DNA of 64,000 nucleotides, taken from an uncultured Acidimicrobiales bacterium. GTDB lineage: Bacteria > Actinomycetota > Acidimicrobiia > Acidimicrobiales > VFJN01. The stretch covers positions 386,840 to 450,839 of the forward strand of contig CAVUBW010000024.1 in assembly GCA_963739835.1 (NCBI GenBank). Reading direction: 5' to 3'. Under the pieces are notes generated by a model. That model was not told the DNA's origin, did not search any database, and worked only from the letters and a program-made list of their open reading frames with translations. Shown here piece by piece: positions 2,533 to 47,849 of this stretch (positions within the stretch are counted from its first letter, which is position 1; each line of letters begins with the position of its first letter). A program made the translations under genes and the position numbers.

Positions 2533-3127
2533 TTGGCAACCCGCGTCGTCATCGCCGAGGACGAGGCCATCATCCGCCTCGACCTGCAAGGAGACCCTCG
2601 AGGAGGAGGGCTACGAGGTCGTCGGCGAGACCGGCCGCGGCGACGAGGCCGTCGAGCTGGTCCGCGAGCTCGAGCCCGACCTCGCCATCCTCGACATCAA
2701 GATGCCCGGCATCGACGGCCTCGACGGCCGCCCGCGAGCATCGCCGGCGAGCGCGATCTGCGGCGTGCTGATCCTCACCGCGTTCAGCCAGCGCGACCTC
2801 GATCGAGCAGGCCCGCGACGCCGGCGCCCTGGCCTACCTGGTCAAGCCGTTCCAGCGAGCGAGCTGATCCCGGCCATCGAGGTGGCGCATCGGCCGCTTC
2901 CGCGAGCTGCAGGCGCCTCGCCGAGCGAGGCCGACGCGCTCGAGGAGCAGCTCGAGACCCGCAAGGTCGTCGACCGGGCCAAGGGCATGCTGATGGACGA
3001 GCCCGGCATGTCACGAGGCCGACGCGTTCGCGTTCATCCAGCGCACGGCGATGAGCGAGCGGCACCGACGGATGCGCGACGTCGCCGACCGGATCCTCGA
3101 CGGCGACGCTCGCGCCCGGACGCCTGA
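2533..3127 (+). CDS. pdtaR: ANTAR response regulator (PdtaR-like), many +1 extra bases
   Basis: RBS aaaggaa then TTG 2533. After removing single bases: VVIAEDEAIIRLDLKETLEEEGYEVVGE...DIKMPGIDGLDAAREIAGERICGVLILTAFSQRDL...LETRKVVDRAKGMLMDE...AFAFIQRTAMSERTTMRDVADRIL. Same length as mycobacterial PdtaR across the receiver and ANTAR helices. Confidence 0.85.
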
Positions 3128-3140
3128 CGGCCGACGCCGT

Positions 3141-5889
3141 CGGCCGGCGACCACGCTCCTGCTCATCGACGGCAACTCGCTGACCTACCGGGCGTTCTTC
3201 GCCCTGCCGACCGACATGACCACCGCGTCCGGCCAGGTCACCAACGCGGTGTTCGGCTTCACGTCGATGCTGATCAACCTGCTGCAGCGACCACCAGCCC
3301 GACGGCGTCGCGGTGGCCTTCGACCGGCCCGAGCCGACGTTCCGCCACGAGGCCGATCGCCGACCTACAAGGCCAACCGCGACGCGGCGCCCGACATCCT
3401 GCGCCAGCAGATGGGCCTGGTCCGCCAGGTGGTCGAGGCGCTGCGGCATCACCGATCCTCGAGCTGCCCGGCTGCGAGGCCGACGACATCATCGCCACCC
3501 TCGCCGACCAGGCCCGCGACGCCGGGCGACGACGTCATCATCGTCACCGGCGACCGCGACAGCTACCAGCTCGTCGAGGACCCCCACGTCAAGGTGCTCT
3601 ACAACCAGCGCGGCGTGTCAGCGACTACGCGCTCTACGACGAGGCCGGCATCGAGGAGCGCACCGGCGTCACGCCCGGCGCAGTACGTCGCAGTACGCCG
3701 CGCTGCGCGGCGACCCGCAGCGACAACCTGCCCGGCGTGCCCGGCGTCGGCGAGAAGACCGCGGCCAAGCTGATCAACACCTACGGCGGCCTCGACGGCA
3801 TCTTCGCCCACGTCGACGAGCAGACGCCGAAGCTGCGGCCAGAACCTGACCGAGCACGAGGCCCAGGTCCGGCAGAACGCCGAGGTCATGGTGCTGCGCC
3901 GCGACGCCCCGGTCGACGTCGACCTCGACGAGCTCGACCGTCGGCGACCCGACGCCGACGAGGTCCGGCGGCTGTTCGACTTCCTCGAGTTCCGCACGCT
4001 GCTCGACCGCCTGGCCGAGGCGCTCGGCGACGGCCGGCGTCGGCGCCGGCGGCCGCGCCGGCGAGGTGCTCGAGGCCGAGGCTCGAGGCCTGGACGATCG
4101 CCGCCGACGCCGTCGCGGCTGCTCGACGCGCTGGCCGCGGCGCGACGGCCGCTCGACCGTCGCCGCCGCCTGGCCGGCGAGCCGACGGCCGCTCGCCGCT
4201 GGCCGGCCTCGCCGCTCGTCACCGACCGCGCCGGCGGCCGAGGTCGCCTGGATCCCCGCCGACGCTCGCTGGCCGACGATGCCGGTCGCGCTGGCCGGGC
4301 TCGTCGGCGCCGGCGGCCGACCGCTGCGCGGCCCACGACGCCAAGCCGCTGATGCGCGCGCTCGCCGAGCTCGACGTCGACGTGCGCGGCCTCGGCGCTC
4401 GACACCGCGATCGCCGCCTACCTGCTCGACCCGGCCGAGGCGCGCTACGCGCTCGACGAGCTGCTCGAGCCGCTACGCCGACGCTCGCGCTGCCCGACCG
4501 ACGACGGCCGCCGGCCGAGGGCCAGCTCGACTTCGACGGCGACGCGCGTCGACGTCGCGCGAGCTGGCCGGCCCGCCGACGCGCTCGCCGTCGACCGCCT
4601 CGTCGAGCCGCTCGCCGCCGCGCTCGACGCCCAGGGCCTGCGCGGCGCTCGTACGACGACGATCGAGGAACCCGCTCGTGCGGGTGCTCGCCCGCATGGA
4701 GCACGTCGGCATCGGCGTCGACGTCGGCCGAGCTGCGGCGCGCTCAACGAGCGAGCTCGTCGCCGAGGTGCGAGCGCGCTGCAGCGCGCAGATCTGGGAG
4801 GACGCCGGCGAGCGAGTTCAACGTCAACTCCACCGCCGCAGCTGCGCGAGATCCTCTTCGACGAGCTGCGGCCTGACGCCCGCAGAAGAAGACCAAGACC
4901 GGCTACTCCACCGACGCCGCCGTCGCTCGAGAAGCTGCGCGGCCAGCACCCGATCATCGAGCCCCTGCTGCGCTACCGCGAGGTCGAGAAGCTGCGGTCG
5001 CACCTACGGCGAGGGCCTGCTCGCCGAGGTCGCGCCCGACGGCCGCATCCACGCCACGTTCAACCAGACGGTGGCCCGCACCGGCCGGCTGTCAGCTCCG
5101 ACCAGCCGAACCTGCACAACATCCCGGTGCGCACCGAGGAGGGCCGGCCAGTTCCGCAAGGCGTTCGTGCCCGCGCCCGGGCTACGAGCTGCTGGTGGCC
5201 GACTACAACCAGATCGAGCTGCGCTGCATCGCCCACCTCGCCGAGGACCCGGGCCTGATCGAGGCGTTCGACGAGCGGCCAGGACATCCACACCGCCACC
5301 GCGTCGCGGGTGTTCGGCGTCGAGCCCGGCGACGTCACCGTCGAGCAGCGGTCGAAGGCGAAGATGGTCTCGCTACGGCCTGGCCTACGGCATGGAGGCC
5401 TACGGGCTCGGCCAGCGGCTCGGCATCCCCACCGAGGAGGCCGCCGGTGATCCTCGACGCCTACTTCGTGGCCTTCCCGGCCGTGAAGGACTACATGGAC
5501 CGCACGGTGGCCGAGGCCCGCGAGCGGGGCTACACCGAGACGCTGTTCGGCCGCCGCCGCCCGATCCCCGAGCTGCTCGAACTCGAACTTCCGCATCCGC
5601 CAGGCCGGCGAGCGCCAGGCCATGAACGCCGGCATCCAGGGCCTGGCCGCCGACATCTTCAAGGTGGCGCTGGTCCGCCTCGACCAGGCGCTCGAGCGAC
5701 GGCGGGCTCGACGAGCCGCCTCATCCTCCAGGTGCACGACGAGGTGCTCGTCGAGGTGCCCCGAGCCGAGCACGACGCCGTCGGCCGACCTCGTGCGTCG
5801 ACGCCATGCGCGGTGCCGCCGAGCTGCGACGTGCCGCTCGAGGTGAACCTGTCGTTCGGGCGACACGTGGGCCGACGGCGAAGGGCTGA
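3141..5889 (+). CDS. polA: DNA polymerase I, many +1 extra bases; start codon not resolvable (about 3130-3150)
   Basis: [105 protein letters not shown] spread over three frames. Restored C-terminus ...TWADAKG with TGA 5887-5889. Confidence 0.9.
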
Positions 5890-5892
5890 CCG

Positions 5893-6834
5893 GTGGCCGA
5901 CGACCGCCGACGGCGGCAGCGTCGCCGACCACTGGTTCGAGCCGCTCGCCGACCACCTGGGCGCGGCCTACCTGCGCTACTCGTTCACCAAGGGCACCGA
6001 GCAGGAGGTCGACGTTCCTGGTCGACGCGCTCGGGCTGACGCCCGGCGACGCGGGTGCTCGACGTCGGCTGCGGGCCCGGGCCGCCACGCCCACGCACTG
6101 GCCCGGCGGGGGATCGAGGTCGCACGGCGTCGACATCAGCCAGCGCTTCGTCGACCTGGCCACGCGCGGCGGCGCCGCCCGGGCGCGACGTTCGAGCGGG
6201 TCGACGCCCGGCACGCTCGCCGTTCGACGCCGAGTTCGACGCGGTCATCTCGCTGTGCCAGGGGGCGTTCGGGCTGGCCGGCGGGCCGGACGGCGCCGAG
6301 TCGACGCCGACGGCGCGTGCTGGCCGGCATGGCCCGGGCGCTGCGGCCCGGCGGGCGGCTGGCGCTGTCAGCGCGTTCACCGCCTACTTCCGGTGCGGTA
6401 CCTCGAGGACGGCGACACCTTCGACGCCGACACCGGCGTCAACCACGAGCGCACCGAGGTGCGCGACGAGGCCGGGCGCGGCGCGCGACGGTCGACCTGT
6501 GGACCAGCTGCTACACCCCCCGCGAGCTGCGCCTGCTGCTCGGCGCGGCCGGTCTGCGCGGTCGACGCGATCTGGTCAGCGTCGAGCCCGGCGCCTACGG
6601 CGCCGACGCCGCCCGACCATCGAGTCGCCCGAGTTCCTCGGTCGCTCGCGCCCGACCGCGGCCGGCGTCCGGACGTCGTGCTGGCTCGCCGGCGTCGCTG
6701 GCGCTGCGACCGGTGCGCTGGTCCTGGTCGCCGTGCGCCGCGCCGAGCGAGCACCTGTCCGCCAGTCGCACGTCCGACCGTCCCTCGTACCCCCGAAAGC
6801 CGACCGTCCCTTGTCCGACACCGCGACCATCTGA
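5893..6834 (+). CDS. class I SAM-dependent methyltransferase, several +1 extra bases
   Basis: GTG 5893. [77 protein letters not shown]. The only stop in any frame before rpsA is TGA 6832-6834, so the end is inferred. Confidence 0.6.
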
Positions 6835-6853
6835 CCCATCCGCCCGCCGAGCC

Positions 6854-8229
6854 ATGGGCACCTTCGACGACGAGGGCAGCTACACCCCCCGCCAGATCAT
6901 CGCCGACGACCTCGGCATGTCGCTTCGCCGACGCCATCGACGGCACCATGGTCGACGGTCGAGGACGGCCAGCTCGTCCACGGCACCGTCGTCAAGGTCG
7001 ACCAGGACGAGGTCCTGCTCGACATCGGCTACAAGTCCGAGGGCGTCATCCCCGCCCGCGAGCTGTCGATCCGCAACGACGTCGACCCGCACGAGATCGT
7101 CTCGCTCGGCGAGCAGGTCGAGGCCCTCGTCCTCACCAAGGAGGACAAGGAAGGCCGCCTGGTCCTGTCCAAGAAGCGGGCCCAGTACGAGCGGGCCTGG
7201 GGCACGATCGAGAAGATCAAGGAAGCCGACGGCGTCGTCGAGGGCCCGGTCATCGAGGTCGTCAAGGGCGGCCTCATCGTCGACATCGGCCTGCGCGGCT
7301 TCCTGCCCGCCTCGCTCGTCGAGCTGCGCCGGGTCCGCGACCTGCAGCCCGTACGTCGGCAAGATCGCTCGCAGGCCAAGATCATCGAGCTCGACAAGAA
7401 CCGCAACAACGTGGTGCTGTCCCGCCGGGCCTGGCTCGAGGAGACCCAGAAGGAGCAGCGCGAGGAGCTTCCTCACCAACCTCAAGCCGGGCGAGGTCCG
7501 CAAGGGCGTCGTCTCCTCGGTCGTCAACTTCGGTGCGTTCGTCGACCTCGGCGGCATGGACGGCCTCATCCACGTGTCAGCGAGCTGTCGTGGAAGCACG
7601 TCGACCACCCCGGCTCGGTCGTCGCCGTCGGCGACGAGGTCAAGGTGCAGGTGCTCGACGTCGACCTCGACCGCGAGCGCATCAGCCTGTCGCTGAAGGC
7701 CACCCAGCAGGATCCGTGGCAGGAGTTCGCCACCAGCCACCAGGTCGGCGAGCTGGTCTACGGCCGGGTCACCAAGCTGGTGCCGTTCGGCGCGTTCGTC
7801 CAGGTCGGCGACGGCATCGAGGGCCTGGTGCACATCTCGGAGATGTCGGCCCACCACGTCGACCCGCCCGAGCAGGTCGTCACGCCGGGCGAGGAGCTGT
7901 GGGTCAAGATCATCGACCTCGACCTCGCAGCGCCGCCGCATCAGCCTGTCGATCAAGCAGGCCGCCGAGGGTGGCGATCTGGCCGCCGAGTACCGGAGCA
8001 CTTCGGCGAGCACGCCTACGACGACCAGGGCAACTACATCGGCCGCGCGAGCACCGACCGAGGCCGAGGAGGCCTGGGCCGAGTACTACGCCGAGAGCGG
8101 CGAGGCCCCGCCGGCGGACCTGGCCGAGGCCGGCGAGGCCGAAGCAGAGGCCGACGCCGAGGCCGCCGGACGAGGTCGACGAGCGAGGTCGAGGGCGAGG
8201 CCCCGGATGAGGGCGAGGGCGAGGGCTGA
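6854..8229 (+). CDS. rpsA: 30S ribosomal protein S1, several +1 extra bases
   Basis: MGTFDDEGSYTPRQIIADDLG...VEDGQLVHGTVVKVDQDEVLLDIGYKSEGVIPARELSIRNDVDP...KIIELDKNRNNVVLSRRAWLEETQ...FGAFVDLGGMDGLIHVS...KATQQDPWQEF. Acidic tail ends EGEGEG then TGA 8227-8229. Confidence 0.92.
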
Positions 8230-8230
8230 A

Positions 8231-8284
8231 GCGTTTTGTCCGCCGAATTGGTCGCCATAGCGACCACCTCGGCGTAGAAAACGC
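8231..8284 (+). repeat. ~54-nt three-helix hairpin element, copy A (core GGTCGCCATAGCGACC)
   Basis: gcgtttt-gtc-cgccga-att-ggtcgc-cata-gcgacc-acc-tcggcg-tag-aaaacgc. Lies between the rpsA stop and the coaE start. A related inverted copy is at 22818-22867. Confidence 0.6.
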
Positions 8285-8305
8285 GAGACCCGCTAGGGTC
8301 CCGGC

Positions 8306-8933
8306 GTGCTGGTCGTAGGGCTCACCGGAGGCATCGGGTCGGGGAAGTCGACCGTGTCGCGCCTGCTGGCCGACCGGGGCGCCGTCATCGTCGACGCCGA
8401 CGCCATCACCCGCGAGGTGCAGGAGCCGGGCACTCCGGCGTTCGCCGCCATGGTCGAGCGCTTCGGCCCGGGCATCGTGGCCGCCGACGGCACGCTCGAC
8501 CGGGCCGCCGTCGCCGACATCGTGTTCGCCGACCCCGATGCCCTCGCCGACCTCAACAAGATCGTGCATCCCGCCGTCGGGGCCGAGATCGCCCGGCGCA
8601 TGACCGAGTTGGCCGACACCGACGCGGTCGTCGTGCTCGACGTGCCGCTGATGGTCGAGTCGTCGCGGGGCTACCCCGTCGCCGGCCTCCTCGTCGTGGA
8701 CGTCGACCCCGAGGTCGCGCTCGCGCCGGGTGGTCGAGCAGCGGGGGATGCGCGAGGCCGACGTCCGGGCCCGGATGGCCAACCAGGCGACCCGCGACCA
8801 GCGCCTGGCCCGGGCCGACCGCGTGATCGACAACGGCGGCACGCTCGCCGGCCTGGAGCGACAGGTCGACGAGGCCTGGCACTGGATCGAGGGCCTGGCC
8901 GTCACAGCGGCGCCACGTCCACCGACACGGTGA
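8306..8933 (+). CDS. coaE: dephospho-CoA kinase; one +1 extra base near 8727
   Basis: MLVVGLTGGIGSGKSTVSRLLADRGAVIVDADAI... (P-loop), then frame change to RVVEQRGMREADVRARMANQATRDQRLARADRVIDNGG. Confidence 0.88.
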
Positions 8934-10061: not shown

Positions 10062-10062
10062 G

Positions 10063-14156: not shown

Positions 14157-17065
<2,909 letters not shown>

Positions 17066-21473: not shown

Positions 21474-22600
21474 TCAGGTGATGTCGAGCATCCGCTGGAG
21501 GGCGACGCGTGCCCACTCGGCGGTCTCGGCGTCGACGGTGATCTGGTTCACGACCTCGCCGCGCGACCAGCTCGTCGAGCACCCAGGCCAGGTGGGGCTC
21601 GTCGATGCGGAACATCGTCGAGCACGGGCAGATCAGCGGGTCGAGCGACACGACGGTCTTGTCGGGGTGCTCGGCGGCCAGGCGCTGGACCAGGTGGATC
21701 TCGGTGCCGACGCCGATGGCGGCGCCGGCGGGCGCGTCGTCCACGCGCCCGATGATGGCGTCGGTCGAGCCGACCTGGTCGGCGAGCTCGCACGACCTCG
21801 TGCGCGCACTCGGGGTGCACGATCACGATGCCGTCGGGGTGCTCGGCCCGGAAGGCGGCGACGTGCTCGGGCCGGAACCGCTGGTGCACCGAGCAGTGGC
21901 CCTTCCACAGGAGGAACGTCGCCTCCTTGACGTCGCGCCTCGTCGAGGCCGCCGAGCTCGCGGCGCGGGTTCCACACCCGCATGTGCGTCCAGCGGCGTA
22001 GCCCATGGCCACGCCGGTGTTGCGGCCGAGGTGCTGGTCGGGGAAGAAGAGCACCTGGTCACCGACGCCGGCGTCCCGCTGCGGCCCCCGCCGAGCGCCC
22101 ACTCGAGCACGGCCCGGGCGTTGGACGAGGTGCACACGGCGCCGCCGTGGCGCGCCGACGAACGCCTTGAGGGCGGCGGACGAGTTCATGTAGGTGATCG
22201 GCACGACCCGGTCGATGTCGGTGACGTCGGCGAGGGCGTCCCACGCCTCCTCGACCTCGTCGATGTCGGCCATGTCGGCCATCGAGCACCCGGCGTTGAG
22301 GTCGGGGAGGATGACGCGGCTGGTGGTCGCCGGTGAGGATGTCGGCCGACTCGGCCATGAAGTGCACGCCGCAGAACACGATGAACTCGGCCTGCGGGCC
22401 GCTGCTGGGCGAGCACGGACAGCCGGAACGAGTCGCCGCGGGCGTCGGCCCAGCGGATGACCTCGTCGCGCTGGTAGTGGTGGCCGAGGATGAAGAGGCG
22501 GTCACCGAGCGCGGCCTTGGCCGCAGCGATCCGCCGGGCCGAGCTCGTCCGGGGACGCGACGGTGTACCGCTCGGCGAGCGGGCTCTGGAGCCGCAGCAT
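21474..22600 (-). CDS. nadA: quinolinate synthase, many +1 extra bases
   Basis: RBS ggagga then ATG 22600: MLRLQSPLAERYTVASPDEL...LFILGHHYQRDEVIRWAD...FCGVHFMAESADIL...NAGCSMADMADIDEVE...ITYMNSSAALKAF...WKGHCSVHQRF...VHPECAHEV...STMFRID. Confidence 0.88.
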
Positions 22601-22628
22601 GTTGGGGATCCTCCAAAGTGCGATGGCT

Positions 22629-22690
22629 CCGGTTGCGGCCGGTGGGGACAGCCTGGTCGCCCCCCACGGGGATGTCGGCCCCGGAACCGA
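22629..22690 (-). promoter_or_regulatory. candidate NAD+ class I (nadA-motif-like) riboswitch domain in the nadA leader
   Basis: Minus strand: UCGGUU-ccgg-GGCCG-ACAUCCCC-GUGGGG-(14 nt loop)-CCCCAC-CGGCC-gc-AACCGG. Two coaxial helices are separated by a one-sided ACANCCCC bulge, 15 nt upstream of the RBS. GGGGAUGUCG at 22767-22758 can pair with the bulge instead. Confidence 0.45.
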
Positions 22691-22817
22691 TATGCCGCCG
22701 GAATACCAGGCCGGCTTGGCGGAGAGTCTACGGGGTGAACGGCAGCTGACCTCCAGGCGACATCCCCGGCCGGGTCCCTGGCCATGGCGGACAATCGGCG
22801 CGGTGACCTCGACCAGG

Positions 22818-22867
22818 AGTTCTACGCGGAAACGGTCGCTATAGCGACCACTTCCGGGACAAACGTC
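22818..22867 (-). repeat. hairpin element copy B (perfect 16-bp palindrome GGTCGCTATAGCGACC), inverted relative to copy A
   Basis: The reverse complement acgtttgtcccggaagtggtcgctatagcgaccgtttccgcgtagaac aligns with copy A. The middle helix differs in sequence but still pairs (cggaa/ttccg versus cgccga/tcggcg). Confidence 0.6.
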
Positions 22868-22913
22868 GAGGCCGCCCGGCCCGGGGCGGTCGGGTCGCGC
22901 CGGCGCCATTAGC

Positions 22914-25607: not shown

Positions 25608-25631
25608 GCGCCACTGAGACTGGACGAGGCG

Positions 25632-27407: not shown

Positions 27408-27519
27408 CGGGTGCCGGCGACGCTGCTCGCGTCGCCAACGTACCGTCGGTCGTCCCGCCCGCTCTAAGGTCCCTGTGGACGCTTCGGGTCGACGATCGAC
27501 GACAGAGAGGGCCAGACAG

Positions 27520-28550
27520 ATGACCATCCGCGTGGGGATCAACGGCTTCGGCCGCATCGGCCGCAACTTCTTCCGGGCCGCCAAGGGGCAGGGCGCCGAC
27601 ATCGACTTCGTCGCCGTCAACGACCTCGGGCTCGCTCGAGACGATGGCGCACCTGCTCAAGTACGACTCGGTCGCTCGGCACGCTGCCCGGACGACGTCA
27701 AGGCGACCGACGACGGCATCAACGTCGACGGCGACGTGCTCAAGGTGCTCGCCGACCGCGACCCGGCCGAGCTGCCCGTGGGGCGAGCTCGGCGTCGACG
27801 TCGTCGATCGAGTCGACCGGCTTCTTCACCGACCGCGACAAGGCCGCCGCCCACCTCGACGGCCGGCGCGCCCCGTCGTCATCGTGTCGGCGCCCGTGCG
27901 ACCGGCGCCGACGCCACGTTCGTGGTCGGCGTCAACGACGACACCTTCGACCCGGCCGCCCACAAGGTCGTGTCCAACGCGTCGTGCACCACCAACTGCT
28001 TCGTGCCGATGATCAAGGTCCTCGACGACGCCTTCGGCGTCGAGAAGGGCCTCATGACCACGATCCACGCCTACACCGGCGACCAGAGCTGGTCGACGGC
28101 CCCCACAGCGACCTGCGCCGGGCCCGCGCCGCGGCCGTCAACATCGTGCCGACCTCCACCGGCGCCGCCCGCGCCACCGGCCTCGTGCTGCGAGTCGATG
28201 AAGGGCAAGCTCGACGGCACCGTCGCTGCGGGTGCCCGTGCCCGACCGGCTCGATCACCGACTTCGCCGGCGTGCTCGACCAGGACGTCGACCGTCGACG
28301 AGGTCAACGCCGCGTTCCAGGCCGCCGCCGCCGAGGGCCCGCTGTCAAGGGCGTGCTCGAGTACACCGAGGAGCCGCTCGTGTCGTCCGACATCGTCGGC
28401 TCGCCCGCAGCTCGTGCATCTTCGACTCGCGGCCTCACCATGGCCATGGGCAACCTGGTCAAGGTGCTCGGCTGGTACGACAACGAGTGGGGCTACTCGA
28501 ACCGCCTCGTCGACCTCGCCCTGATCGTCGGCACGGCCAACCAGGGCTGA
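27520..28550 (+). CDS. gap: glyceraldehyde-3-phosphate dehydrogenase, many +1 extra bases
   Basis: [22 protein letters not shown]...[12 protein letters not shown]...[18 protein letters not shown]...[39 protein letters not shown]...[12 protein letters not shown]...[18 protein letters not shown]. Confidence 0.93.
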
Positions 28551-28552
28551 GC

Positions 28553-30510
<1,958 letters not shown>

Positions 30511-34589: not shown

Positions 34590-35693
34590 CGAGCCCGCTG
34601 ATGACGCCCTTGGACGGCATGGCGTCCAACGGCAAGGACGTCCTGCTGTCGATCCGTGACCTGCGGGCGGGGTTCCCGACCGACGACGGCGTCGTCCACG
34701 CGGTCGACGGCGTCAGCTTCGACGTGAACCGGGGCGAGGTGTTCGCCATCGTCGGCGAGTCGGGCTCGGGCAAGTCGGTGACCGCCATGGCGATCCTCGG
34801 CCTGCTACCGACCCTCGACATCACCGGCGGCGAGATCCTGTGGAAGGGGGTCGACGTCCTCACGCTGAACGAGAACCAGCGCCGGTCCATCCGGGGCAAG
34901 GAGATCGCCATGATCTTCCAGGACCCGCTGACCGCGCTGAACCCCGTGCACACGATCGGCCGGCAGATCGCCGAGATGGCCCGCATCCACGAGGGCCTCG
35001 GCAAGAGGGCGGCGTTCGAGCGGGCGGTCGAGCTGCTCGACCTGGTCGGCATCCCCGAGGCCCGCAAGCGGGCCACGATGTACCCGCACGAGTTCTCCGG
35101 CGGCATGCGCCAGCGGGCGATGATCGCCATGGCGATCACCTGCAAGCCCGACCTGCTGATCGCCGACGAGCCCACCACCGCGCTCGACGTGACGGTGCAG
35201 GCCCAGGTGCTCGAGGTGCTGATCGGCATCAAGGACGAGATCGACTCGGCGATCATGCTCATCACCCACGACCTCGGCGTCGTCGCCGGCCTGGCCGACC
35301 GGGTGATGGTCATGTACGCCGGGCGGCCGGTCGAGACCGGCACGATCGACGAGATCTTCTACGAGACCCGCCACCCCTACACGCTCGGCCTGCTGGCCAG
35401 CCTGCCCCGCCTCGACGACGTGGGCGACGAGGCGCTGTCCCGATCGCCGGGTCGCCGCCCTCGCTGATCCGCAAGCCGACCGGGTGCGCGTTCCATCCCC
35501 GGTGCCGCTTCGCGCGACGTCCCGGGGCTGTGCAACACCGAGAGCCCGGAGCTGCGCCTGGTGGCCGGCGACGCCCACCTGGCCGCCTGCCACCGCTCCG
35601 ACGACCTCGCCGGCGTCGACCGTCGACGAGCTGCGCGCCCAGGCCGACGAGGCCGACCTGCTCGTCGAGGACGCGGTGGTCGATGCACCGTGA
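34586..35693 (+). CDS. peptide ABC transporter ATPase (OppD/DppD-like); C-terminal part carries extra bases
   Basis: ...FAIVGESGSGKSVTAMAILGL...FSGGMRQRAMIAMAI...LIADEPTTALDVTVQ...ITHDLGVVA...HPYTLGLLASLPRL, then shifted frames ...IAGSPPSLIRKPTGCAFHPRC...AACHRSDDL...[13 protein letters not shown]. Confidence 0.85.
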
Positions 35694-36767
35694 CCGACAC
35701 CGCCGTCGAACCCACGGCCGGTCGCGAGCGGCGCGCCGGCCGCTCCTGCTCGCGTCACGCGACCTGGTCAAGGACTTCCCGATCCGGGGCGGCGTGTTCG
35801 GCCGCACCGTCGGCTACGTGTCCGGCCGTCGCCGGGCGTCGAGCTTCGACCGTCGCGCCAGGGCGAGACGCTCGGGCTGGTGGGCGAGTCGGGCTGCGGC
35901 AAGTCGACGACCGGGCGGCTGCTGCTCCACCTGCTCCGGCCCACGTCCGGCACGGTCACCTTCGACGGCATGACGACTCGGCCGCATGAGGGGCAAGAGC
36001 CTGGCCGCCATGCCGGCGGCGGTTCCAGATCGTGTTCCAGGACCCGTACGCCTCGCTCAACCCCCGCATGACCGTCGGCGACATCGCTGGCCGAGCCGCT
36101 CAGGTCCACCGGCCTGGGCGACAAGGAGCGTCCAGGCGCGGGTGGCCGAGCTGCTCAAGATCGGTCGGTCTGGCGCCCGAGCACGTCAACCGCTTCCCGC
36201 ACGAGTTCTCCGGCGGCCAGCGCCAGCGCATCGGCATCGCCCGGGCCCTGGCGCTCGAGCCCGAGCTGATCGTGCTCGACGAGCCGGTGTCGGCCCTCGA
36301 CGTGTCGATCCAGGCCGGCGTGGTCAACCTGCTCCAGGACCTGCAGGACGAGCTCGGCCTCTCCTACGTCTTCATCGCCCACGACCTGTCGGTGGTGCGC
36401 CACATCTCCGACCGGGTGGCGGTGATGTACCTGGGCAAGATCGTCGAGACGGGCCAGCGCGAGGAGATCTACGAGAACGCCGGCCCACCCGTACACGCAG
36501 GCGCTGCTGTCGGCCATCCCGCTGCCCGACCCCAACGCCGAGCGCTCCCGGCAGCGGATCGTCCTCAACGGCGACGTGCCCAGCCCGGCCGACCCGCCGT
36601 CGGGCTGCCGCTTCCGCACCCGGTGCTGGCGCAAGCGCGAGCTGGAGGACGCGGGCGTCGACACGTCCGCCTGCTCGGAGGAGGAGCCGGCGCTGGAGAT
36701 CCGCTCGTCGAGCGGGGCCGACCATCCGGTGGCCTGCCACTTCGCGCAGACGCGGGCCGTCGTCTAA
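35690..36767 (+). CDS. peptide ABC transporter ATPase (OppF/DppF-like); several extra bases
   Basis: GTGA overlap with the previous gene. ...[21 protein letters not shown]...[17 protein letters not shown]...[17 protein letters not shown]...[15 protein letters not shown]...[13 protein letters not shown]...[11 protein letters not shown]...[16 protein letters not shown]. Confidence 0.85.
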
Positions 36768-37011: not shown

Positions 37012-39306
37012 ATGAGCATCCTGGGCAACCGGGTCCTCCGTAGCGAGGACCCCCGCCTCCTGACCGACGGCGGCCGGTACACCGCCGATCTCCGCGACCC
37101 CCGCCTCGACGGCGCCCTGCACGCCGTCTTCGTCCGCTCGACGGTGGCGCACGCCGAGCTCCTCGGCGTCGACGTGGCCGAGGCCGCAGCCGCGCCCGGC
37201 GTGGTCGCGGTGCTGACCGGGGCCGACATCGACCTCGCCCCGATGCCGGGGATGCTCAAGGCCGACATGGGCCGCACCCTCCTGGCACGCGACCGGGTCC
37301 GGTTCGTCGGCGAGCCGGTGGCGGTCGTCCTGGCCGAGACGCCCGCGCAGGGCGAGGACGCGGCCGAGCTGGTGATCGTCGACTACGAGCCGCTGCCCGC
37401 CGTGGTCGACCCCGCCACCGCGCTCGACGGCGACACGGTCCTGTTCCCGGAGGCCGGCACCAACCGGTCGGCGGGTTCGGCCACCCGCCCGGCGAGGGCA
37501 CCGGCCCCGAGGACTGCGAGGTCGTCGTCCGCCAGCGCATCGTCAACCAGCGCCTGGCGGCGTGCCCGCTCGAGGTCCGCTCGGCGGCCGCGGCCTGGGC
37601 CGAGGGCCGGCTGGTGCATGTGGATCTCGACTGCCAGAGCGCCCACGGCGCCAAGTCCGGGCTCACCGGCGCCTACGGGCTGTCCCCGGCCGACGTGCTC
37701 GTGATCGCGCCCGACGTCGGCGGCGGCTTCGGCGCCAAGGCCGGCGCGAGCGCCGAGGAGCTGTTGCTGCCGTGGCTCGCCCGCCGCACCGGGCGCCCGG
37801 TGCGCTGGACCGAGACCCGCACCGAGAACATGACCGCCATGGTCCACGGGCGGGCGCAGGTGCAGGACGTGACGATCGGCGGCACCCGCGACGGGCATCA
37901 TCGGGTCGTACCACCTCGACGGTCATCCAGGACGCCGGCGCCTACCCGTCGCTCGGCGCCGTGCTGCCGGGCATGACCCGGATGATGACGACCGGCATCT
38001 ACGCCATCCCCCACGTCGACGTTCGACGGCGACGATCGTCGCCACCACCACGACGCCGATCGCCGCCTACCGGGGCGCCGGCCGGCCGGAGGCCGCCGCC
38101 GCGCTCGAGCGGGCCGTCGACCTGTTCGCGGCCGAGATCGGCATGGACCCGGCCGAGGTCCGGCGGCGCAACCTGATGCCGGCGTTCGCCGAGACCCAGA
38201 CCACGCGCGTCGGGCACCACCTACGACTGCGGCGACTACCCGGCGGCGCTCGAGCGGGTGCTCGCGGCGGCCGGCTACGACGACCTGCGGGCCGAGCAGC
38301 GGCGGCGCCGCGAGGCGGGCGACCCGGTGGCGCTGGGCATCGGCCTGGCCAGCTACGTCGAGGTCACCGCCGGCCCGGTCGCCGGCAGCGAGTTCAGCCG
38401 GGTGCGGTCGACGCCCACGGCGGCCGGCGACGGCGTCGAGGTCGTCGTGTACACGGGCAGCTCGCCCCACGGCCAGGGCCACGACACGGCGTGGGCCATG
38501 ATCGTCGCCGACGAGCTGGGCGTCCCGATGGACGACGATCGGGTCGTCCACGGCGACACCGACCTGGTGGCCCGCGGGCGTGGGCACCGGTCGGGTCCCG
38601 CTCGGTGCAGCTGGCCGGCGCCGCGGTCCGGGCCGACGTCGGCCGAGGCTGGTCGACGCCGCCCGCCGCGGTGGCCGCCGACCTGCTCGAGGCCGCGGTC
38701 GACGACGTCGTGCTCGACGCCGACGCCGGCCGCTTCCACGTCGCCGGCATCGCCGGCGCGTCGCCCGGACGTGGGCCGAGGTCGGCGGCCGCCGCGCGAC
38801 GACCCTGAGCGCGGAGCCCGACTTCCAGGCGCCCCAGGCCCACGTTCCCGTTCGGCGCCCACCTGGCGGTGGTCGAGGTCGACACCGAGACCGGCGACGT
38901 CCGCCTGCGGCGGCTCGTGGCGGTCGACGACGCCGGCCGGGTGCTCAACCCGCTGCTCGCCGAGGGCCAGGTCCACGGCGGCCTGGCCCAGGGCGTCGCC
39001 CAGGCGCTGTTCGAGGAGGTCCGCTTCGACGCCGACGGCAACCCGCTGACGACGAACTTCGCCGACTACGCGATCCCGTCGGCCGCCGAGCTGCCGAGCT
39101 TCGAGCTGGTCGCGATGGAGACCCCCACGTCGGTCAACCCGCTCGGGGCCAAGGGCATCGGCGAGTCGGGCACGATCGGCTCGACACCGGCCGTGCAGAA
39201 CGCGGTGTTCGACGCCCTGGCCCACCTCGGCGTGCGCCACGTCGACATGCCGTGCACCCCCGAGCGGGTGTGGCGGGCGATCCGCGCCGCCGCCGAGGGC
39301 GAATAG
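37012..39306 (+). CDS. molybdopterin-binding large subunit of the xanthine dehydrogenase/CODH family (form-II CoxL-like), orphan copy; extra bases between ~37470 and ~38830
   Basis: [27 protein letters not shown]...[16 protein letters not shown]...; mid-part over three frames includes ...[21 protein letters not shown]...; clean C-terminus ...[32 protein letters not shown]...[19 protein letters not shown]. Confidence 0.85.
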
Positions 39307-42355: not shown

Positions 42356-43193
42356 TCCCGGCACGCGTTCGACTACCAGCGGGCCGCGTCGGTCGACGAG
42401 GCGGTGCGGCCTGCTCGCCGAGCACGGCGACGACGCCAAGCTGCTCGCCGGCGGCCACTCGCTGCTGCCGCTGATGAAGCTGCGCCTGGCGGCCCCGCAG
42501 CGTGCTCGTCGACATCGGCCGGCTGCACGACCTCTCCTACGTCAGGACGGCCGGCGACGCAGCGTGTGCGCATCGGCGCGCTGACCCGTCACCACGACCT
42601 CGGCCACGTCCGACCTGCTCACGAGCAGGTGCCGCTGCTGGCCGCCGTCGGCGGCCCAGGTCGGCGACCCGCAGGTGCGCCATCGGGGCACGATCGGCGG
42701 CTCGGTCGCCCACGGCGACCCCGCCTCCGACCTGCCGGCGGCGCTGCTGGCGCTGCGGGCCACGTTCGTCGCCCGGGGCCCCGGGGGCGAGCGCGAGATC
42801 GCGGCCGACGACTTCTTCACCGGGTTCCTGGAGACCGCGCTCGGCCGCCGACGAGCTGCTCACCGAGATCCGGGTGCCGAAGCGCTGCCGGGCGTCGGCT
42901 GGGCGTTCGAGAAGTTCAACCGCCGGGCCCAGGACTGGGCGATCGTCGGCGTGGCGGCCGTGCTGACCAACAGCGACGCCGGCCCCGGCGTCGGCCTGGT
43001 CAACATGGGCTCCCAGCCGCTGCGGGCGGCCGGGACCGAGGACGCCCTGCGGTCGGGGTCGTCGGTCGGCGACGCCGCGGCCCGGGCCGACGAGGGCACG
43101 GAGCCCCCGGACGACCTCAACGCCTCGCCCGACTACCGCCGCCACCTGGCGCGGGTGCTCACCCGCCGGGCACTCGAGACTGCGGGCGCCTGA
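42352..43193 (+). CDS. coxM: FAD-binding medium subunit (CoxM-like), several +1 extra bases
   Basis: VIPA.FDYQRAASVDEAV..LLAEHGDDAKLLAGGHSLLPLMKLRLAAP..VLVDIGRL...VRHRGTIGGSVAHGDPASDLPAALLAL...FEKFNRRAQDWAIVGVAA...ASPDYRRHLARVLTRRAL. Confidence 0.85.
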
Positions 43194-43217
43194 GCATCTC
43201 CCCGTAGGCTCTTGCCC

Positions 43218-44150
43218 ATGACAGCACCGCCGGTCGCCGACGTCGCCGCCGTCGTCGACGGCTTGGCCGCGCACGACTACCTCGCCGACGAGGGCCTCGC
43301 CACCGCGATCTTCCTCGCGCTCCGGCTCGCAGCGCCCGCTGCTGCTCGAGGGCGAGGCCGGCGTCGGCAAGACCGAGGTCGCCAAGGTGCTGGCGCGCTG
43401 GACCGGCGGCGAGCTGGTCCGGCTGCAGTGCTACGAGGGCATCGACGCCGCCCAGGCGCGTGTACGAGTGGGACTACTCCCGCCAGCTCCTGCACCTGCG
43501 GGCGGCCGAGGCCGCCGGGCGGGCCGCCCAGGCCGGCACCGAGGCGCTCGAGGACGAGCTGTACTCCGAGCGGTTCCTCGTGCGCCGGCCGCTGCTCGCG
43601 GGCGCTCGTCCACGCCCGACGGCGAGCCGCCCCCGGTGCTGCTCATCGACGAGGTCGACCGGGCCGACGACGAGTTCGAGGCGTTCCTGCTCGAGATCCT
43701 GTCCGACTACGCGATCACGATCCCCGAGCTCGGCACGTTCCGCGCCGACGGTGCCGCCGATCGTCGTGCTCACGTCGAACCGCACCCGCGACGTGCACGA
43801 CGCGCTGAAGCGCCGCTGCCTCTACCACTGGGTCGAGCACCCCGACTTCGAGCGCGAGGTCGCGATCGTGCGGCTGCGCGCGCCCGAGGTCGCGCCGAGA
43901 GCTCGCCCGCGCAGGTCGCCGGGCGGTGGCCGAGACGTCCGCGACGCTCGAGCTCTACAAGCCGCCGGGCGTCGCCGAGACGATCGACTGGGCGCAGGCG
44001 CTGGCGACGCTCGGGCCGCTCGACGCTCGACCGGCGGCCGCGTCGCGCCACGCTCGGCACGGTCCTGAAGTACCGCGAGGACCAGGAGCGCGTGCGCGAC
44101 GCACGGCCTCGAGCCGCTCGTGCGGCGCGGCGGTGGCCCGCAGTGCCTGA
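43218..44150 (+). CDS. MoxR-family AAA+ ATPase (CoxD-like), several +1 extra bases
   Basis: ...PLLLEGEAGVGKTEVAKVLARWTGGELVRLQCYEGID...YEWDYSRQLL...VLLIDEVDRADDEFEAFLLEILSDYAITIPELG...VVLTSNRTRDVHDALKRRCLYHWVEHPDFERE... Confidence 0.82.
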
Positions 44151-44164
44151 CGCCGCCGACGGCC

Positions 44165-45293
44165 GTGCCCGACCGTCGCCGTCGCGTTCGCCCGCGTGCT
44201 GCGCGGCGCGGGCCTCGACGTGCCGGTCGGCGTCGACGGTCGTCGTTCGCCGCGCGCGCTCGCCGCCGTCGGCGCTCGACCGGCGCGCCGGCGTCTACTG
44301 GGCCGGCCGGGCGACGCTGGTGCGCCGGCCCGAGGACATCGCCGCCTACGACCGCGCCTTCGCCGCGGTCTTCTGGGCGGCCGGGCCGCCGTGGCGACGC
44401 CCGTGGTCGGCGACGCCGGTCCAGGTCGTGCTCGACGCTGGCCGACGACGACCCGGTCGCCGGCGCCGACGGCGCCGACCCCGAGCCGCCCGGCGACGAG
44501 GATCTCGCGGGCGCTGCGGTGGAGCGCCACCGAGGTGCTGCGCCACCAGGACTTCGCCACCTACACGCCCGCCGAGCTCGCCGAGGCGCGCCGGCTGATG
44601 GCCGACCTGCGGCTCGCCGGCGCGCTGCGCCGCTCGCCGGCGCCGGCGCCGCGCCAGCGCCGGCCGCGGGGCCGCCCGACCTGCGGCGCACGGTCCGCCG
44701 GTCGCTGCGCACCGGCGGCGAGCCGATCGCCCGGGCGTTCGACCGAGCCCGGCGAGCGGCCCCGCCGGCTCGTGCTGCTGCTGCGACGTCAGCGGGTCGA
44801 TGGAGCCCTACGCCCGGGCGCTGCTCCGGTTCGTGCCACGCGGCGGTCGTCGGGCGCCGGCCAGGTCGAGGCGTTCGCGCTCGGCACCCGCCTCACGCGG
44901 CATCACCCGCGAGCTGTCGACCCGCGATCCCGACGCGGCGCTGCGCCAGGCGGCGCGACGCGGTCGCCGACTGGTCCGGCGGCACCCGGCTCGGCGAGGG
45001 GCTGCGGCGCGTTCAACGACCAGCTGGGGCGTGCGCGGCATGGCCCGCGGCGCGGTCGTCGTGATCCTCTCCGACGGCTGGGACCGCGGCGACCCCGACG
45101 TGCTCGGCCGAGCAGATGGCCCGGCTCGCACCGGGTCGCCCACCGCGTCGTCTGGGTCAACCCGCTGAAGGCGACGCCCGGCTACGCGCCGCTCGCCCGG
45201 GGCATGGCCGCGGCGCTGCCGTACGTCGACGAGTTCGTCGAGGGCCACTCGCTGGCGTCGCTCGAGGCGCTGGCCGAGGTGATCGGGCGATGA
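44165..45293 (+). CDS. VWA-domain protein (CoxE-like), many +1 extra bases
   Basis: ...FARVLRGAGLDVPVG...GVYWAGRATLVRRPEDIAAYDRAF...LRHQDFATYTPAELAEARRLM...LVLLLDVSGSMEPYARALLRF...FALGTRLTR...VVILSDGWDRGDP...VVWVNPLKATPGYAPLARGMAAALPYVDEFVEGHSLASLEAL. Confidence 0.8.
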
Positions 45294-45315
45294 CGACGAT
45301 CGGAGGCCGTGCTCG

Positions 45316-46445
45316 ATGAAGGAGATCGCTCGACGACATCGACCGCTGGCGCGCCGCGGGCGCACCGCGGTCGCGGTCGCCCGCGTCGTCGACCTCGACG
45401 GCTCGGGCCCGCGGCTGCCCGGCGCGGCGATGGCCGTGAGCGAGCGCGGCGAGGTCGCCGGCTCGGTGTCGGGCGGCTGCGTCGAGGGCGCGGTCGTCAC
45501 CGAGGCGCTCGAGGTGCTGCGAGACCGGCGAGCGCGGCGATCGTCACGTTCGGCTACTCGCGACGACGAGGCGTTCGCCGTCGGGCTCACCTGCGGCGGC
45601 ACCATCCACCTCTTCGTCGAGCCGCTCGACTGGTGAGCCGGTCGGCGACCGCTCTACGACGACGCTGCGCGGCCGCGCATCCGGCGCCGAGCGAGCCGGT
45701 CGCGCTCGCGACCGTGATCGACGGGCCCGGCGTCGGCGCCAAGCTGCTCGTGCGGCCCGACGGCGAGCCGCGTCGGCACGCTCGGCGACCCCGACCTCGA
45801 CCGCGTCGTCGCCCGCGACGCCCTCGGCGAGCTCGAGGCCGGGCTCGACCGCGGTGCGCCACTACGGCGCCCACGGCGAGGCCCGCGAGGCGGCCGTGGC
45901 GGTGTTCATCGAGTCGTTCGCGCCGCCGCCGCGGATGCTGATCTTCGGCGCCGTCGACTTCACCGCCGCGCTGGCCAAGGTGGCGCAAGGTGCTCGGCTA
46001 CCGCGTCACCGTGTGCGACGCCCGCGAGGTGTTCGCCACCCGGGCGCGCTTCCCGATGGCCGACGAGGTCGTCGTCGACTGGCCCGACCGGCTGCTGCGA
46101 CGCGGTCGGCGCCACGCTCGGCGCCGCGCGACGCGGTCTGCGTGCTCACCCACGACCCCAAGTTCGACGTGCCGGCGATCGTCGGCGCGCTGCGCGACCG
46201 ACGTCGGCTACCTCGGCGCGATGGGCAGCCGCCGCACCCACGCCGACCGGGTCGAGCGCCTGCGCGAGGCGGGCGTCGACCGACGACGGGCCTCGCCCGG
46301 GTCATGGCGCCGATCGGGCTCGACCTCGGCGCCCGCACGCCCGAGGAGACGGCGGTCGTCGATCTGCGCCGAGATCATCGCCCAGCGCACGGGCCGGGCC
46401 AATGCCATGTCGCTGCGCGACGCCGACGGGCCGATCCACGCGTAA
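45316..46445 (+). CDS. XdhC/CoxI-family molybdenum cofactor insertion chaperone, many +1 extra bases
   Basis: ...AVAVARVVDLDGSGPRLPGAAMAVSERGEVAGSVSGGCVEGAVV...AVGLTCGGTIHLFVEP...PVALATVIDGPGVGAKLLV...PPPRMLIFGAVDFTAALAKVA..LGYRVTVCDAR...THDPKFDVPAI...YLGAMGSRRTHADRVERL...APIGLDLGARTPEE. Confidence 0.8.
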
Positions 46446-46454
46446 CCTCGACGG

Positions 46455-47030
46455 ATGACCACCGCCGCGATCGTGCTCGCCGCCGGCGGGGGGTCCCGCT
46501 ACCGGGCCTCCGGGGGCGACAGCCACAAGCTGCTGGCGCAGTACCTGGGCCGCACGGTGGTCGAGTGGTCGATCGAGGCGGCGGCGTCCGCCAACCTCGA
46601 CGCCACGTACGTGGTCCGGGGCGCGACCGACCTGCCGGTCCCGCCGCTGGCGGCTGAGGCGGTCCGCTTCGTCCGCAACGACCGCTGGCAGGAGGGCATC
46701 GCCACATCACTGCAGGCCGGCATCACCCGGGCCCGGCGGGACGGGCACGCGGCGGTGGTGGTCGGCCTCGGCGACCAGCCCCTGGTGCAGACCGAGGCGT
46801 GGCGCCGGGTGGCGGCGACGTCGCGGACGCCGCTGGCCGTGGCGACCTACGACGGCGTGCGGGGCAACCCCGTCCGGCTGTCGTCGCTGGTGTGGCCGCT
46901 GCTGCCCACGCGAGGCGACGAGGGTGCGAAGGTCGTGATGCGGCGGCGGCCCGACCTGGTGGTGGAAGTACCGTGTCCTGGACGTTCCGCCGACATCGAT
47001 ACGGTGGACGACCTCCGCGAGTGGAGCTGA
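46455..47030 (+). CDS. MobA/MocA-like nucleotidyltransferase (molybdenum cofactor cytidylyl/guanylyl-transferase family)
   Basis: Clean 191-aa ORF MTTAAIVLAAGGGSRYR...KLLAQYLGRTVVEWSIEAA...VVVGLGDQPLV... Confidence 0.75.
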   Translation: MTTAAIVLAAGGGSRYRASGGDSHKLLAQYLGRTVVEWSIEAAASANLDATYVVRGATDLPVPPLAAEAVRFVRNDRWQEGIATSLQAGITRARRDGHAAVVVGLGDQPLVQTEAWRRVAATSRTPLAVATYDGVRGNPVRLSSLVWPLLPTRGDEGAKVVMRRRPDLVVEVPCPGRSADIDTVDDLREWS

Positions 47031-47042
47031 CTTCCCGAGGGG

Positions 47043-47849
47043 ATGGCGATGGAGCTGACCAACGAGTTCACGGTGGGCGTACCGGTCGAGCGCGCCTGGG
47101 AGGTCCTGACCGACGTCGAGCTGATCGCCCCGTGCATGCCGGGCGCCCAGCTCCAGGAGATCGAGGGCGACGAGTACCGCGGCATCGTCAAGATCAAGGT
47201 CGGCCCGATCACGGCCCAATACAAGGGCGCGGCCCGGTTCGTCGAGCGTGACGATGCAGTCCACCGGGCGGTCCTGCGCGCCGAGGGCCGCGACACGAGG
47301 GGCCAGGGCAACGCCAGCGCCACGATCACGATGACCCCTCGGCGGCGGCGAGTCGTCGACGGCGGCCCAGGTGGTCACCGACCTGACGATCACGGGCCGG
47401 GTCGCCCAGTTCGGCCGGGGCGTGCTCGGCGACGTGAGCAGCAAGCTGCTCGGCCAGTTCGTGGACTGCCTGGAATCCAAGCTGCCGTCCGACCAGGCGG
47501 CGGCAGAGCCGGCCGCCGCGCCGGTGCCGACCGAGCCGCCCGCGGAACCGGCGGCGCCCGTGCAGGGCCACGGCCCGCTGGACATCGCGTCGGAGGGCGC
47601 GGCGGCCACGCGACCCTCGAGGACGCCGCCGCGGCCGGCGCCGAGTCGGCCCGCCTCGACGGCACGTCCGGCCCGGCGATCCGCGTGGTCGACGGCCCGG
47701 AGGCCCAACCGGTCGACCTGGTCGAGGCCGCAGGCGCCCCGATCGCCAAGCGCGTGGCCCCGGCGGTCATCGGACTCACGTTCCTCTGGCTGCTCAGCAT
47801 CTTCGTCCGGCGCCGCCGCCGCTCCCGCCGCAACCGCCGGGCGGGCTGA
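47043..47849 (+). CDS. coxG: CoxG-like SRPBCC protein with C-terminal membrane anchor; three extra bases
   Basis: MAMELTNEFTVGVPVERAWEVLTDVELIAPCMPGAQLQEIEGDEYRGIVKIKVGPITAQYKG... then VVTDLTITGRVAQFGRGVLGDVSSKLLGQFVDCLESKL... then ...VIGLTFLWLLSIFVRRRRR. Confidence 0.8.
   Translation: MAMELTNEFTVGVPVERAWEVLTDVELIAPCMPGAQLQEIEGDEYRGIVKIKVGPITAQYKGAARFVERDDAVHRAVLRAEGRDTRGQGNASATITMTPRRRRVVDGGPGGHRPDDHGPGRPVRPGRARRREQQAARPVRGLPGIQAAVRPGGGRAGRRAGADRAARGTGGARAGPRPAGHRVGGRGGHATLEDAAAAGAESARLDGTSGPAIRVVDGPEAQPVDLVEAAGAPIAKRVAPAVIGLTFLWLLSIFVRRRRRSRRNRRAG

Follow-up and report, generated by a model that had tools for sequence, protein, structure and literature searches.

When alleles were collapsed in a PacBio assembly of T. 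brucei Lister 427, INDEL errors arose, and with them apparent frameshifts, close to allelic variants (Cosentino et al. 2021, PMC8445201). The errors were ascribed to reads misaligned where variants cluster and to differences in repeat length, and the frameshifts vanished once the haplotypes had been separated. The window analysed here, a stretch of 64,000 nt from an uncultured Acidimicrobiales bacterium, is similar to that case in that conserved genes are frameshifted where haplotypes appear to differ, and in that heterozygosity switches between low and high from tract to tract. T. brucei is a diploid eukaryote, however, whereas the window presumably represents a metagenomic mixture of strains, and the sites in the window are denser (10-17 per kb) and nearly all clean one-SNP doublets.

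Two further comparisons are instructive. Frameshifted genes also occur in Nanopore and PacBio metagenome-assembled genomes (MAGs), where single bases can be removed or added under protein guidance to repair them. The errors of those MAGs, however, occupy homopolymers, are in many cases deletions and bear no relation to codon phase (Sereika et al. 2022, PMC9262707; proovframe), whereas in the window homopolymer extensions account for 2% of sites, deletions are scarce, and the sites go with the third codon position and show natural-looking synonymy. A consensus written with IUPAC codes (S, R, Y) likewise holds both alleles of a polymorphic site in one sequence. Such codes preserve length and frame, whereas the doublets of the window lengthen the sequence by one base per SNP in variable order, and two-base alleles are written as blocks. 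Our literature search found no paper describing exactly this emission of both alleles for a named tool.

Distribution of the extra bases

Because the window is GC-rich (~72%), with a GC3 of ~0.97, the reading frame can be tracked along it. In the blocks named by an earlier note, which had been made by eye from the sequence, the frame steps 0->1->2->0 at a rate of one step per 30-300 nt, and GC3 periodicity is preserved in the affected genes. Comparison by blastn with at least five relatives at 80-90% nucleotide identity counted, per kb of the affected blocks, 10-17 insertions and 0-2 deletions of one base; in the clean blocks the number of one-base indels was approximately zero. A codon-usage Viterbi model skipped ~250 bases between 2.6 and 47.6 kb and reproduced the layout of affected and clean blocks that the note had drawn there; frame changes were also present beyond 48 kb, outside the range that it had given. 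The affected blocks and isolated sites were as follows, with bracketed bases marking the extra base or doublet.

2379..2508 (+): a 65-bp sequence perfectly duplicated in tandem (2.0 copies) where the first affected block starts; single copy in relatives
2586..8726 (+): block 1, with an ANTAR response regulator, polA, a methyltransferase, rpsA and the start of coaE; ~75 single extra bases, 60 sites placed against related loci L010/L012
11857..13451 (+): block within uvrB; ~17 single extra bases
15626..16050 (+): two isolated extra bases in uvrA, which is clean elsewhere; the first is at[C]g (15626), the second lies at ~16040-16050
21556..30327: block 3, with nadA (minus strand), uvrC, a methyltransferase, rapZ, yvcK, gap, pgk and tpiA; ~90 single extra bases
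33996 (+): isolated extra base gg[CG] in oppC, a Viterbi skip; relatives there are too distant for placement
35515..36765 (+): block with oppF and the start of secG
37465..38844 (+): block inside a 750-aa molybdopterin-type gene; filtering against relatives left 1 site
42358..47599 (+): block with the 3' end of coxL, coxM, coxD, coxE, xdhC and mobA; ~45 extra bases, thinning out beyond 46.4 kb, 28 sites placed against L013/L014

Every one of the extra bases was absent from the orthologues in 12 related loci. The window's own population was not found in the protein and contig collections, where the best matches were 92% and 96% identical at the amino acid level; gene order at 21556..30327 was identical in the closest JGI contig (92% aa). 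Alignment to relatives also refined individual placements. Of the two isolated breaks in uvrA, the first is at[C]g at 15626, where the sequence of three relatives is ATG GGC TTC, and not ggg|c|ttc at 15630; the placement of the second is ambiguous over 16040-16050. The site given as tcg|c|ttc at 6923 is in fact ct[TC], where relatives carry CTC for Leu.

Codon phase of the redundant base

Base-level alignment to the 12 related loci yielded 209 sites for a tally of phase, a check that the note itself had proposed. The redundant base followed codon positions 1, 2 and 3 in proportions of 0.21, 0.45 and 0.34. Uniform insertion over the codon phases was rejected (p=9e-5), and insertion at codon boundaries only was rejected as well (p=3e-20), so the description of each extra base as lying exactly between two intact codons does not hold: the base fell before the third position (0.45) at least as often as after it (0.34). 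A tally made by eye was bound to resemble boundary insertions, since any NN[XY] can be read as NNX|Y|. By comparison, a model in which the third-position base is accompanied by a different base, in either order, fitted the phase well (p=0.73); the maximum-likelihood share of third-position sites was 0.88 (support interval 0.6-1.0), and the natural share of 0.62-0.68 falls within the interval. For the minus-strand nadA, the pattern goes with the orientation of the gene. Judged from these alignments, the signal is one of third-position doublets, free in order, rather than of boundary insertions.

Composition and synonymy of the doublets

For 146 doublets placement was unique, and these were used for the doublet statistics. 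There were 124 C/G doublets, in agreement with the earlier observation of an extra C beside G or G beside C, together with 19 containing A or T and 3 homopolymers, so that 143/146 were heterodoublets. Order was mixed (61 CG, 43 GC), and relatives agreed about equally with the first member (130 times) and the second (142). The C/G share of 85% exceeded that of natural pairs at 92-94% identity (54-69%) and was near that of a pair at 99.65% identity (80%, n=15).

Synonymous doublets numbered 117/146 (80%), as compared to 54% for random third-position doublets, and four-fold boxes were enriched (p=7e-7). D/E was the dominant non-synonymous class; the radical pairs Y/stop and C/W did not occur among the 146 placed doublets, and the S/R pair occurred once. 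Non-synonymous doublets lay mostly at residues conserved among the relatives. Non-synonymous changes made up 26/124 (21%) of the C/G doublets, close to the 18.6% predicted from the natural spectrum, which we derived from the G<->C third-position differences of the relatives (n=507) after correction for recovery efficiency. For a positive control we took the natural SNPs of two related pairs, L003/L004 and L002/L007, and rewrote them as doublets, which gave phases of 0.20-0.27/0.35-0.40/0.38-0.40, a synonymy of 0.86-0.87, and mainly D/E and H/Q among the non-synonymous classes. Relative to the natural spectrum, the CT and CG codon boxes were about two-fold over-represented and the AC, GG and GC boxes were under-represented, which points to some extra context dependence.

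At three sites the two serine codon families stand together, the first two having been noted earlier as a tc before agc.

3618..3622 (+): TCAGC, read as [TC][AG]C, that is, Ser codons TCC and AGC in tandem; relatives TCC/TCT
5092..5096 (+): TCAGC, read as [TC][AG]C; relatives AGC
7577..7581 (+): TCAGC, read as [TC][AG]C, in rpsA; relatives TCC

At each of these sites one allele agrees with the relatives. Serine switches of this kind occur naturally in 27/4284 differing codons, and at that rate three among ~250 sites are unremarkable.

Restored proteins

Removing the skipped bases, another check set out beforehand, returned full-length PolA, UvrB, UvrC and GAPDH. Restored PolA, whose repair took 44 single-base skips and two 2-nt skips, was 897 aa long and aligned across 100% of 897-aa PolA homologues. 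Corrected UvrB covered positions 2-652 of 653 of profile NF003673 (1049 bits), corrected UvrC positions 7-645 of 652, and corrected GAPDH positions 1-330 of 330, and the corrected proteins scored above the curated full-length cut-offs.

Proposed origin of the doublets

Taken together, the alignments establish that the extra bases are insertions only, in third-position phase, that they form heterodoublets with a selection-filtered, natural-looking spectrum, and that full-length proteins are restored by their correction. The explanation that we favour, with a probability of about 0.8, is that the extra bases are probably an assembly artefact in which the SNPs of two close strains have been written out with both bases. 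This is essentially the reading of tandem alleles from two haplotypes put forward in the earlier note, and it passed all of the sequence-level tests that we ran (phase, heterodoublets, synonymy and positive control). Counting against it are the high C/G share, the skewed codon-box usage, the position of most non-synonymous doublets at conserved residues, and a context-matched, codon-blind null that phase by itself does not reject.

Under this two-strain explanation, the window would be a consensus, produced by assembly or contig merging, of two co-occurring and closely related Acidimicrobiales strains. Substitutions between them may have been aligned as a deletion with an adjoining insertion rather than as a mismatch, a behaviour that we infer for the aligner or consensus step, and the consensus would then have retained all bases of either strain, so that in effect it would be a common supersequence of both haplotypes. 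A SNP would leave two unlike bases adjoining in free order with no base lost, and a two-base difference would leave two dinucleotides in tandem, as with TC and AG before C. With GC3 at ~0.97, differences between close strains are expected to be mostly synonymous third-position G<->C changes, which would explain why the extra bases sit at the third position or the codon boundary, every one of them causing a +1 shift. A density of 10-17 doublets per kb would correspond to tracts of ~1-1.7% strain divergence, and in the clean tracts the strains would be identical or a single strain would have contributed. We likewise infer the existence of the two strains and the sequencing platform or software involved.

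Alternative explanations

The most probable of the alternatives, although unlikely, is a context-specific artefact of a base-caller or polisher that adds the complementary base beside G or C, so that phase merely mirrors the periodicity of a GC3 of ~0.97. A context-matched, codon-blind simulation of this process gave phases of 0.26/0.39/0.35, and phase by itself does not reject it (p=0.15). Codon-box usage unlike that of natural SNPs (CT and CG high, AC and GG low) and a C/G share above that of natural pairs also speak in its favour. The same null, however, gave a synonymy of 0.66 against the 0.80 observed (p=2e-4), even though it is partly circular in a way that favours it, its contexts having been taken from the inferred third-position doublets. 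Nor would such an artefact account for the absence of Y/stop and C/W pairs, for a non-synonymous share equal to natural expectation, for serine sites that require two-base alleles, or for a minus-strand pattern that tracks gene orientation.

Alteration after assembly, by a script that expands ambiguity codes or heterozygous calls or by a merge of two contigs that ignores gaps, is a software-level variant of the two-strain explanation in which consensus building from reads plays no part, and as a separate account it is very unlikely. The union-like behaviour, with insertions only and both alleles retained, would suit it, as would the 65-bp tandem duplication at the edge of the first affected block, which resembles an untrimmed join. 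The variable base order (61 CG versus 43 GC) and two-base alleles that come as blocks, TC and then AG, instead of position by position speak against simple IUPAC expansion. A gap-ignoring merge of two sequences would be compatible with the data, and it would still require two real haplotypes.

There is very little probability that these are ordinary PacBio CLR or Nanopore indel errors, unrelated to variants, left behind where a hybrid assembly had low coverage and was insufficiently polished. The alternation of affected and clean blocks is compatible with such errors, the relatives are all MAGs, some of them out of long-read projects, and frameshifts are common in long-read MAGs (PMC9262707). 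Against this stand the rejection of uniform phase, the near absence of deletions, and the homopolymer extensions, which were 3/146 as compared to 41% expected in a simulation of random G/C insertion; a codon-blind process cannot give the observed synonymy together with the absence of radical pairs.

Real gene decay through hundreds of genuine frameshift mutations, which the note had also dismissed and for which nothing speaks except the frameshifts themselves, is effectively refuted by ~250 +1 insertions with hardly any deletions, retained codon bias, corrected proteins above full-length cut-offs, essential single-copy genes hit beside untouched neighbours, and synonymous-enriched doublets that decay would not yield. 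Programmed +1 frameshifting or quadruplet decoding was also considered and rejected, as no common motif was found among the ~250 sites and the orthologues in the 12 loci carry no extra bases; that the bases are genomic and decoded as four-base codons is a far more radical and very improbable reading, with essentially no support.

Implications

The feature is most likely an artefact, not a real one, and has no bearing on new biology. It does have practical consequences. Annotation would present the contig, and probably its entire assembly or bin, as pseudogene-rich, and gene-based quality checks would fail with the organism intact. The signature of +1 shifts only, heterodoublets, third codon positions and natural synonymy flags consensus errors from collapsed strains without recourse to reads, and curators could repair such sequences by removing one member of the doublet at each site. 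The doublets also keep the SNPs between strains and could be mined for micro-diversity.

A more speculative suggestion, which we consider possible but rather doubtful, is that every substitution between the two co-existing strains is preserved faithfully, and in phase, in the doublets, such that the alternation of SNP-free and divergent tracts would map recent homologous recombination. If so, a recombination map of an uncultured lineage could be read off a single 'bad' contig. On this reading, SNP-free tracts of up to 5.5 kb would alternate with tracts at 1-1.7% divergence, and the edges of the tracts lie close to gene ends.

Extra bases and restoration of the genes

The window is 72% GC with a GC3 of approximately 0.97, and actinobacterial gene order is conserved along it in four gene groups:

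Group 1: ANTAR response regulator, polA, rpsA, coaE, uvrB, rib genes, uvrA
Group 2: beta-phosphoglucomutase / GH65 trehalose phosphorylase pair
Group 3: nadA, uvrC, rapZ, yvcK, gap, pgk, tpiA
Group 4: oppABCDF, secG, cox-type molybdenum dehydrogenase cluster

Tracts dense in single extra bases (dirty blocks) break conserved genes here and alternate with clean tracts. Tracking of the GC3 phase showed the frame stepping 0, 1, 2, 0 at short spacing inside the blocks recognized in the earlier note and remaining constant outside them. By blastn against seven related loci of 80-90% nucleotide identity, dirty blocks carried 10-17 one-base insertions per kb versus 0-2 one-base deletions per kb, with about zero of either in clean blocks; for 23-25 kb, insertions/deletions across comparisons were 10/0, 13/0, 12/1, and 11/0. 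A Viterbi model trained on the window's own codon usage skipped ~250 bases from 2.6 to 47.6 kb, and these skips fell into the same blocks. Since the three approaches agree, the extra bases are real and the blocks lie where they had been listed. The prediction that deleting these bases would return intact reading frames was also borne out: with skipped bases removed, PolA was 897 AA long and aligned end to end with its 897-AA homologues, and UvrB, UvrC, and GAPDH, likewise full length again, scored above the cut-offs of curated full-length profiles.

Outside the range originally described, from 48000 to 64000, the GC3 phase also changed and the Viterbi model skipped 3-9 bases per kb, in a region with a lower GC content of 0.67-0.69 (examples are ~54600 on the minus strand and an MmpL-like gene at 54.1-57.1 kb); these may be further doublets, that is, two adjacent bases where one is expected, or model noise. 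Where the response-regulator gene ends (3063-3071), three extra bases fall within 9 nt and are net in frame; relatives read E-R-L-T-M, and a search for a simple allele-pair parse of this site found none.

Relatives of the window

All top matches were MAGs or metagenome contigs of uncultured Acidimicrobiales. In scans of genomes and metagenomes, the window's proteins shared 76-83% AA identity with species-representative genomes, and no nearer relatives appeared there; the nearest JGI metagenome proteins were 92% (GH65) and 96% (CoxL) identical, and in the collections searched there was no record of the exact GH65 protein or of the window's own proteins generally. The beta-phosphoglucomutase-family hydrolase and GH65 trehalose/kojibiose phosphorylase (17197-21470, with uvrA on one side and nadA on the other) and the cox-type cluster downstream of secG (39458-47822; CoxS/L/M/D/E, XdhC, MobA, CoxG) are both syntenic with other Acidimicrobiales contigs. 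Among the related loci, L010 and L011, from independent samples (JGI 3300012940 and ENA ERZ27256362), were 99.93% identical across 18.9 kb, and L001 and L006 were 99.65% identical; these two pairs served as natural controls for strain-level SNPs. Structured RNA, sought as an independent check, was limited to one tRNA-Leu at 48612 in clean sequence, while an ARAGORN 'tRNA-???' with a four-base anticodon at 4004-4102 in polA was without Rfam support and was rejected as a spurious call in coding sequence that is frameshifted.

Codon position of the extra base

The earlier note placed the extra bases exactly on codon boundaries. Because any base near a break can be deleted to restore the frame, and third positions are degenerate, the eye cannot separate a base after position 3 from one after position 2. 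We took, for every one-base insertion, the deletion that best matched relatives at 12 loci (L001-L007, L010, L012-L014), with codon phase taken from the relative's GC3 periodicity, and we calibrated this placement with insertions planted into the window's clean genes.

Placement of the extra base within the codon, observed and for planted insertions (share after position 1/2/3; p versus observed)
Observed, 209 sites: 0.21/0.45/0.34
Uniform insertions: 0.33/0.33/0.34; p=9e-5
Boundary-only insertions: 0.22/0.20/0.59; p=3e-20
Third-position base plus its complement, random order: 0.20/0.43/0.37; p=0.73

The extra bases themselves thus stand, but their description as always on a codon boundary is rejected by the calibrated placement (p=3e-20). 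The observed phases fit third-position doublets, and in the minus-strand nadA the pattern tracks the gene's own orientation; the true regularity is therefore a third-codon-position doublet in either order rather than a boundary insertion. In a three-component fit, the third-position share of doublets was 88% (support interval 0.6-1.0), an interval that includes the 62-68% found for natural SNPs between related genomes. Individual sites moved accordingly, with the first uvrA site relocated to 15626, at[C]g, and site 6923 reading ct[TC].

Composition of the doublets and natural strain variation

Among 146 uniquely placed doublets, 124 were C/G, 19 contained A or T, and 3 were homopolymers. Synonymous pairs made up 117 of them (80%), compared with 54% for random third-position doublets and 97% for doublets planted at synonymous sites only. 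Four-fold codon boxes were enriched (p=7e-7), Y/stop and C/W pairs were absent from this set, and D/E was foremost among the non-synonymous pairs, followed by H/Q, I/M, and K/N. Relatives matched the first member in 130 cases and the second in 142.

A codon-blind process that creates G/C doublets at any codon position, with flanking bases matched, was compatible with the observed phases (p=0.15) but was rejected by synonymy (p=2e-4). Random G/C insertion, for which 41% homopolymers are expected, was ruled out by codon phase and the near-absence of homopolymer doublets.

For a natural reference, we tabulated per codon box 507 third-position G<->C differences among related loci that were at least 90% identical, corrected per box for the recovery efficiency of the pipeline. 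This reference predicted 18.6% non-synonymous pairs among C/G doublets versus 21% in the window. As a positive control, real SNPs of L003/L004 and L002/L007 were written as tandem doublets and passed through the same pipeline, which returned phases of 0.20-0.27/0.35-0.40/0.38-0.40 and a synonymy of 0.86-0.87, with D/E and H/Q leading the non-synonymous classes. Taken as a whole, the set of doublet properties cannot be produced by any codon-blind process.

The window reads TCAGC at 3618, 5092, and 7577, where relatives have TCC, AGC, and TCC, respectively, so that both serine codon families, TC+AG, stand ahead of a common C. The first two sites had already been seen as tc before agc, and the third is an additional case. 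Among relatives, 27 of the 4284 codons that differed were serine-family switches, a rate at which three in ~250 is not unusual. An excess of serine TCC/AGC switches was not upheld, since one of four candidates (6368) is an in-frame GTC AGC and the other three are within the natural rate. These sites also parse as two neighbouring SNP doublets, [G/T][C/A]. The codon preceding each ends in TG (GTG at 3618, CTG at 5092, GTG at 7577), which may be chance or may point to emission that depends on the alignment.

The C/G share was 85% in the window versus 54-69% in natural pairs at 92-94% identity, and 80% (12/15) in the pair at 99.65% identity, while doublets containing A or T were 2-3 times rarer than in the natural pairs at 92-94%. 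Compared with natural G/C variation, the doublets at 2586-46443 fell about twice as often in the boxes Leu CTS and Arg CGS, and the boxes Thr ACS, Gly GGS, and Ala GCS were under-represented. Non-synonymous doublets fell mostly on residues conserved in relatives, which is compatible with, but not proof of, transient, slightly deleterious strain variants. Together, the C/G excess, the codon-box bias, the TG before the TCAGC sites, and the conserved-residue hits suggest that whether a SNP turns into a doublet depends to some extent on its context.

Probable origin by collapse of two strains

The interpretation of the earlier note, two haplotypes with both alleles written, is well supported, and from the sequence comparisons we put the probability that the doublets record two alleles at roughly 0.8. 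Two closely related strains would have been merged into a single consensus, with substitutions between them aligned as a deletion plus an insertion instead of a mismatch; retaining all bases found in either strain would then yield a common supersequence of both haplotypes. Such a collapse would explain why there are only insertions, why the members always differ and occur in either order, and why two-base alleles appear as blocks. Expansion of IUPAC codes was rejected on the grounds of the variable base order and these two-base blocks. Dirty blocks would represent tracts of 1-1.7% strain divergence and the lone doublets at 1611, 15626, ~16045, and 33996, each within a long clean tract, would be lone SNPs, a mosaic that is expected of recombining strains.

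Some PacBio consensus code turns mismatches into insertion and deletion pairs. Either a read-level consensus built on an error model dominated by indels or the merging of two contigs without regard to gaps could have produced the doublets. Our literature search found no explicit description of a named tool emitting both alleles; the general precedent found was a T. brucei PacBio assembly, in which the collapse of alleles led to INDEL errors and to apparent frameshifts close to allelic variants (PMC8445201). An assembly artefact of this kind would not be a biological feature, and the value of the doublet signature is diagnostic.

A perfect 65-bp tandem duplication (2379-2508; 2.0 copies, 100% identity), present as a single copy in relatives L010 and L012, sits where clean sequence meets the first dirty block. 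Of the gene upstream of the response regulator, it includes the final codons, the stop codon, and 4 nt, and it may be an untrimmed join.
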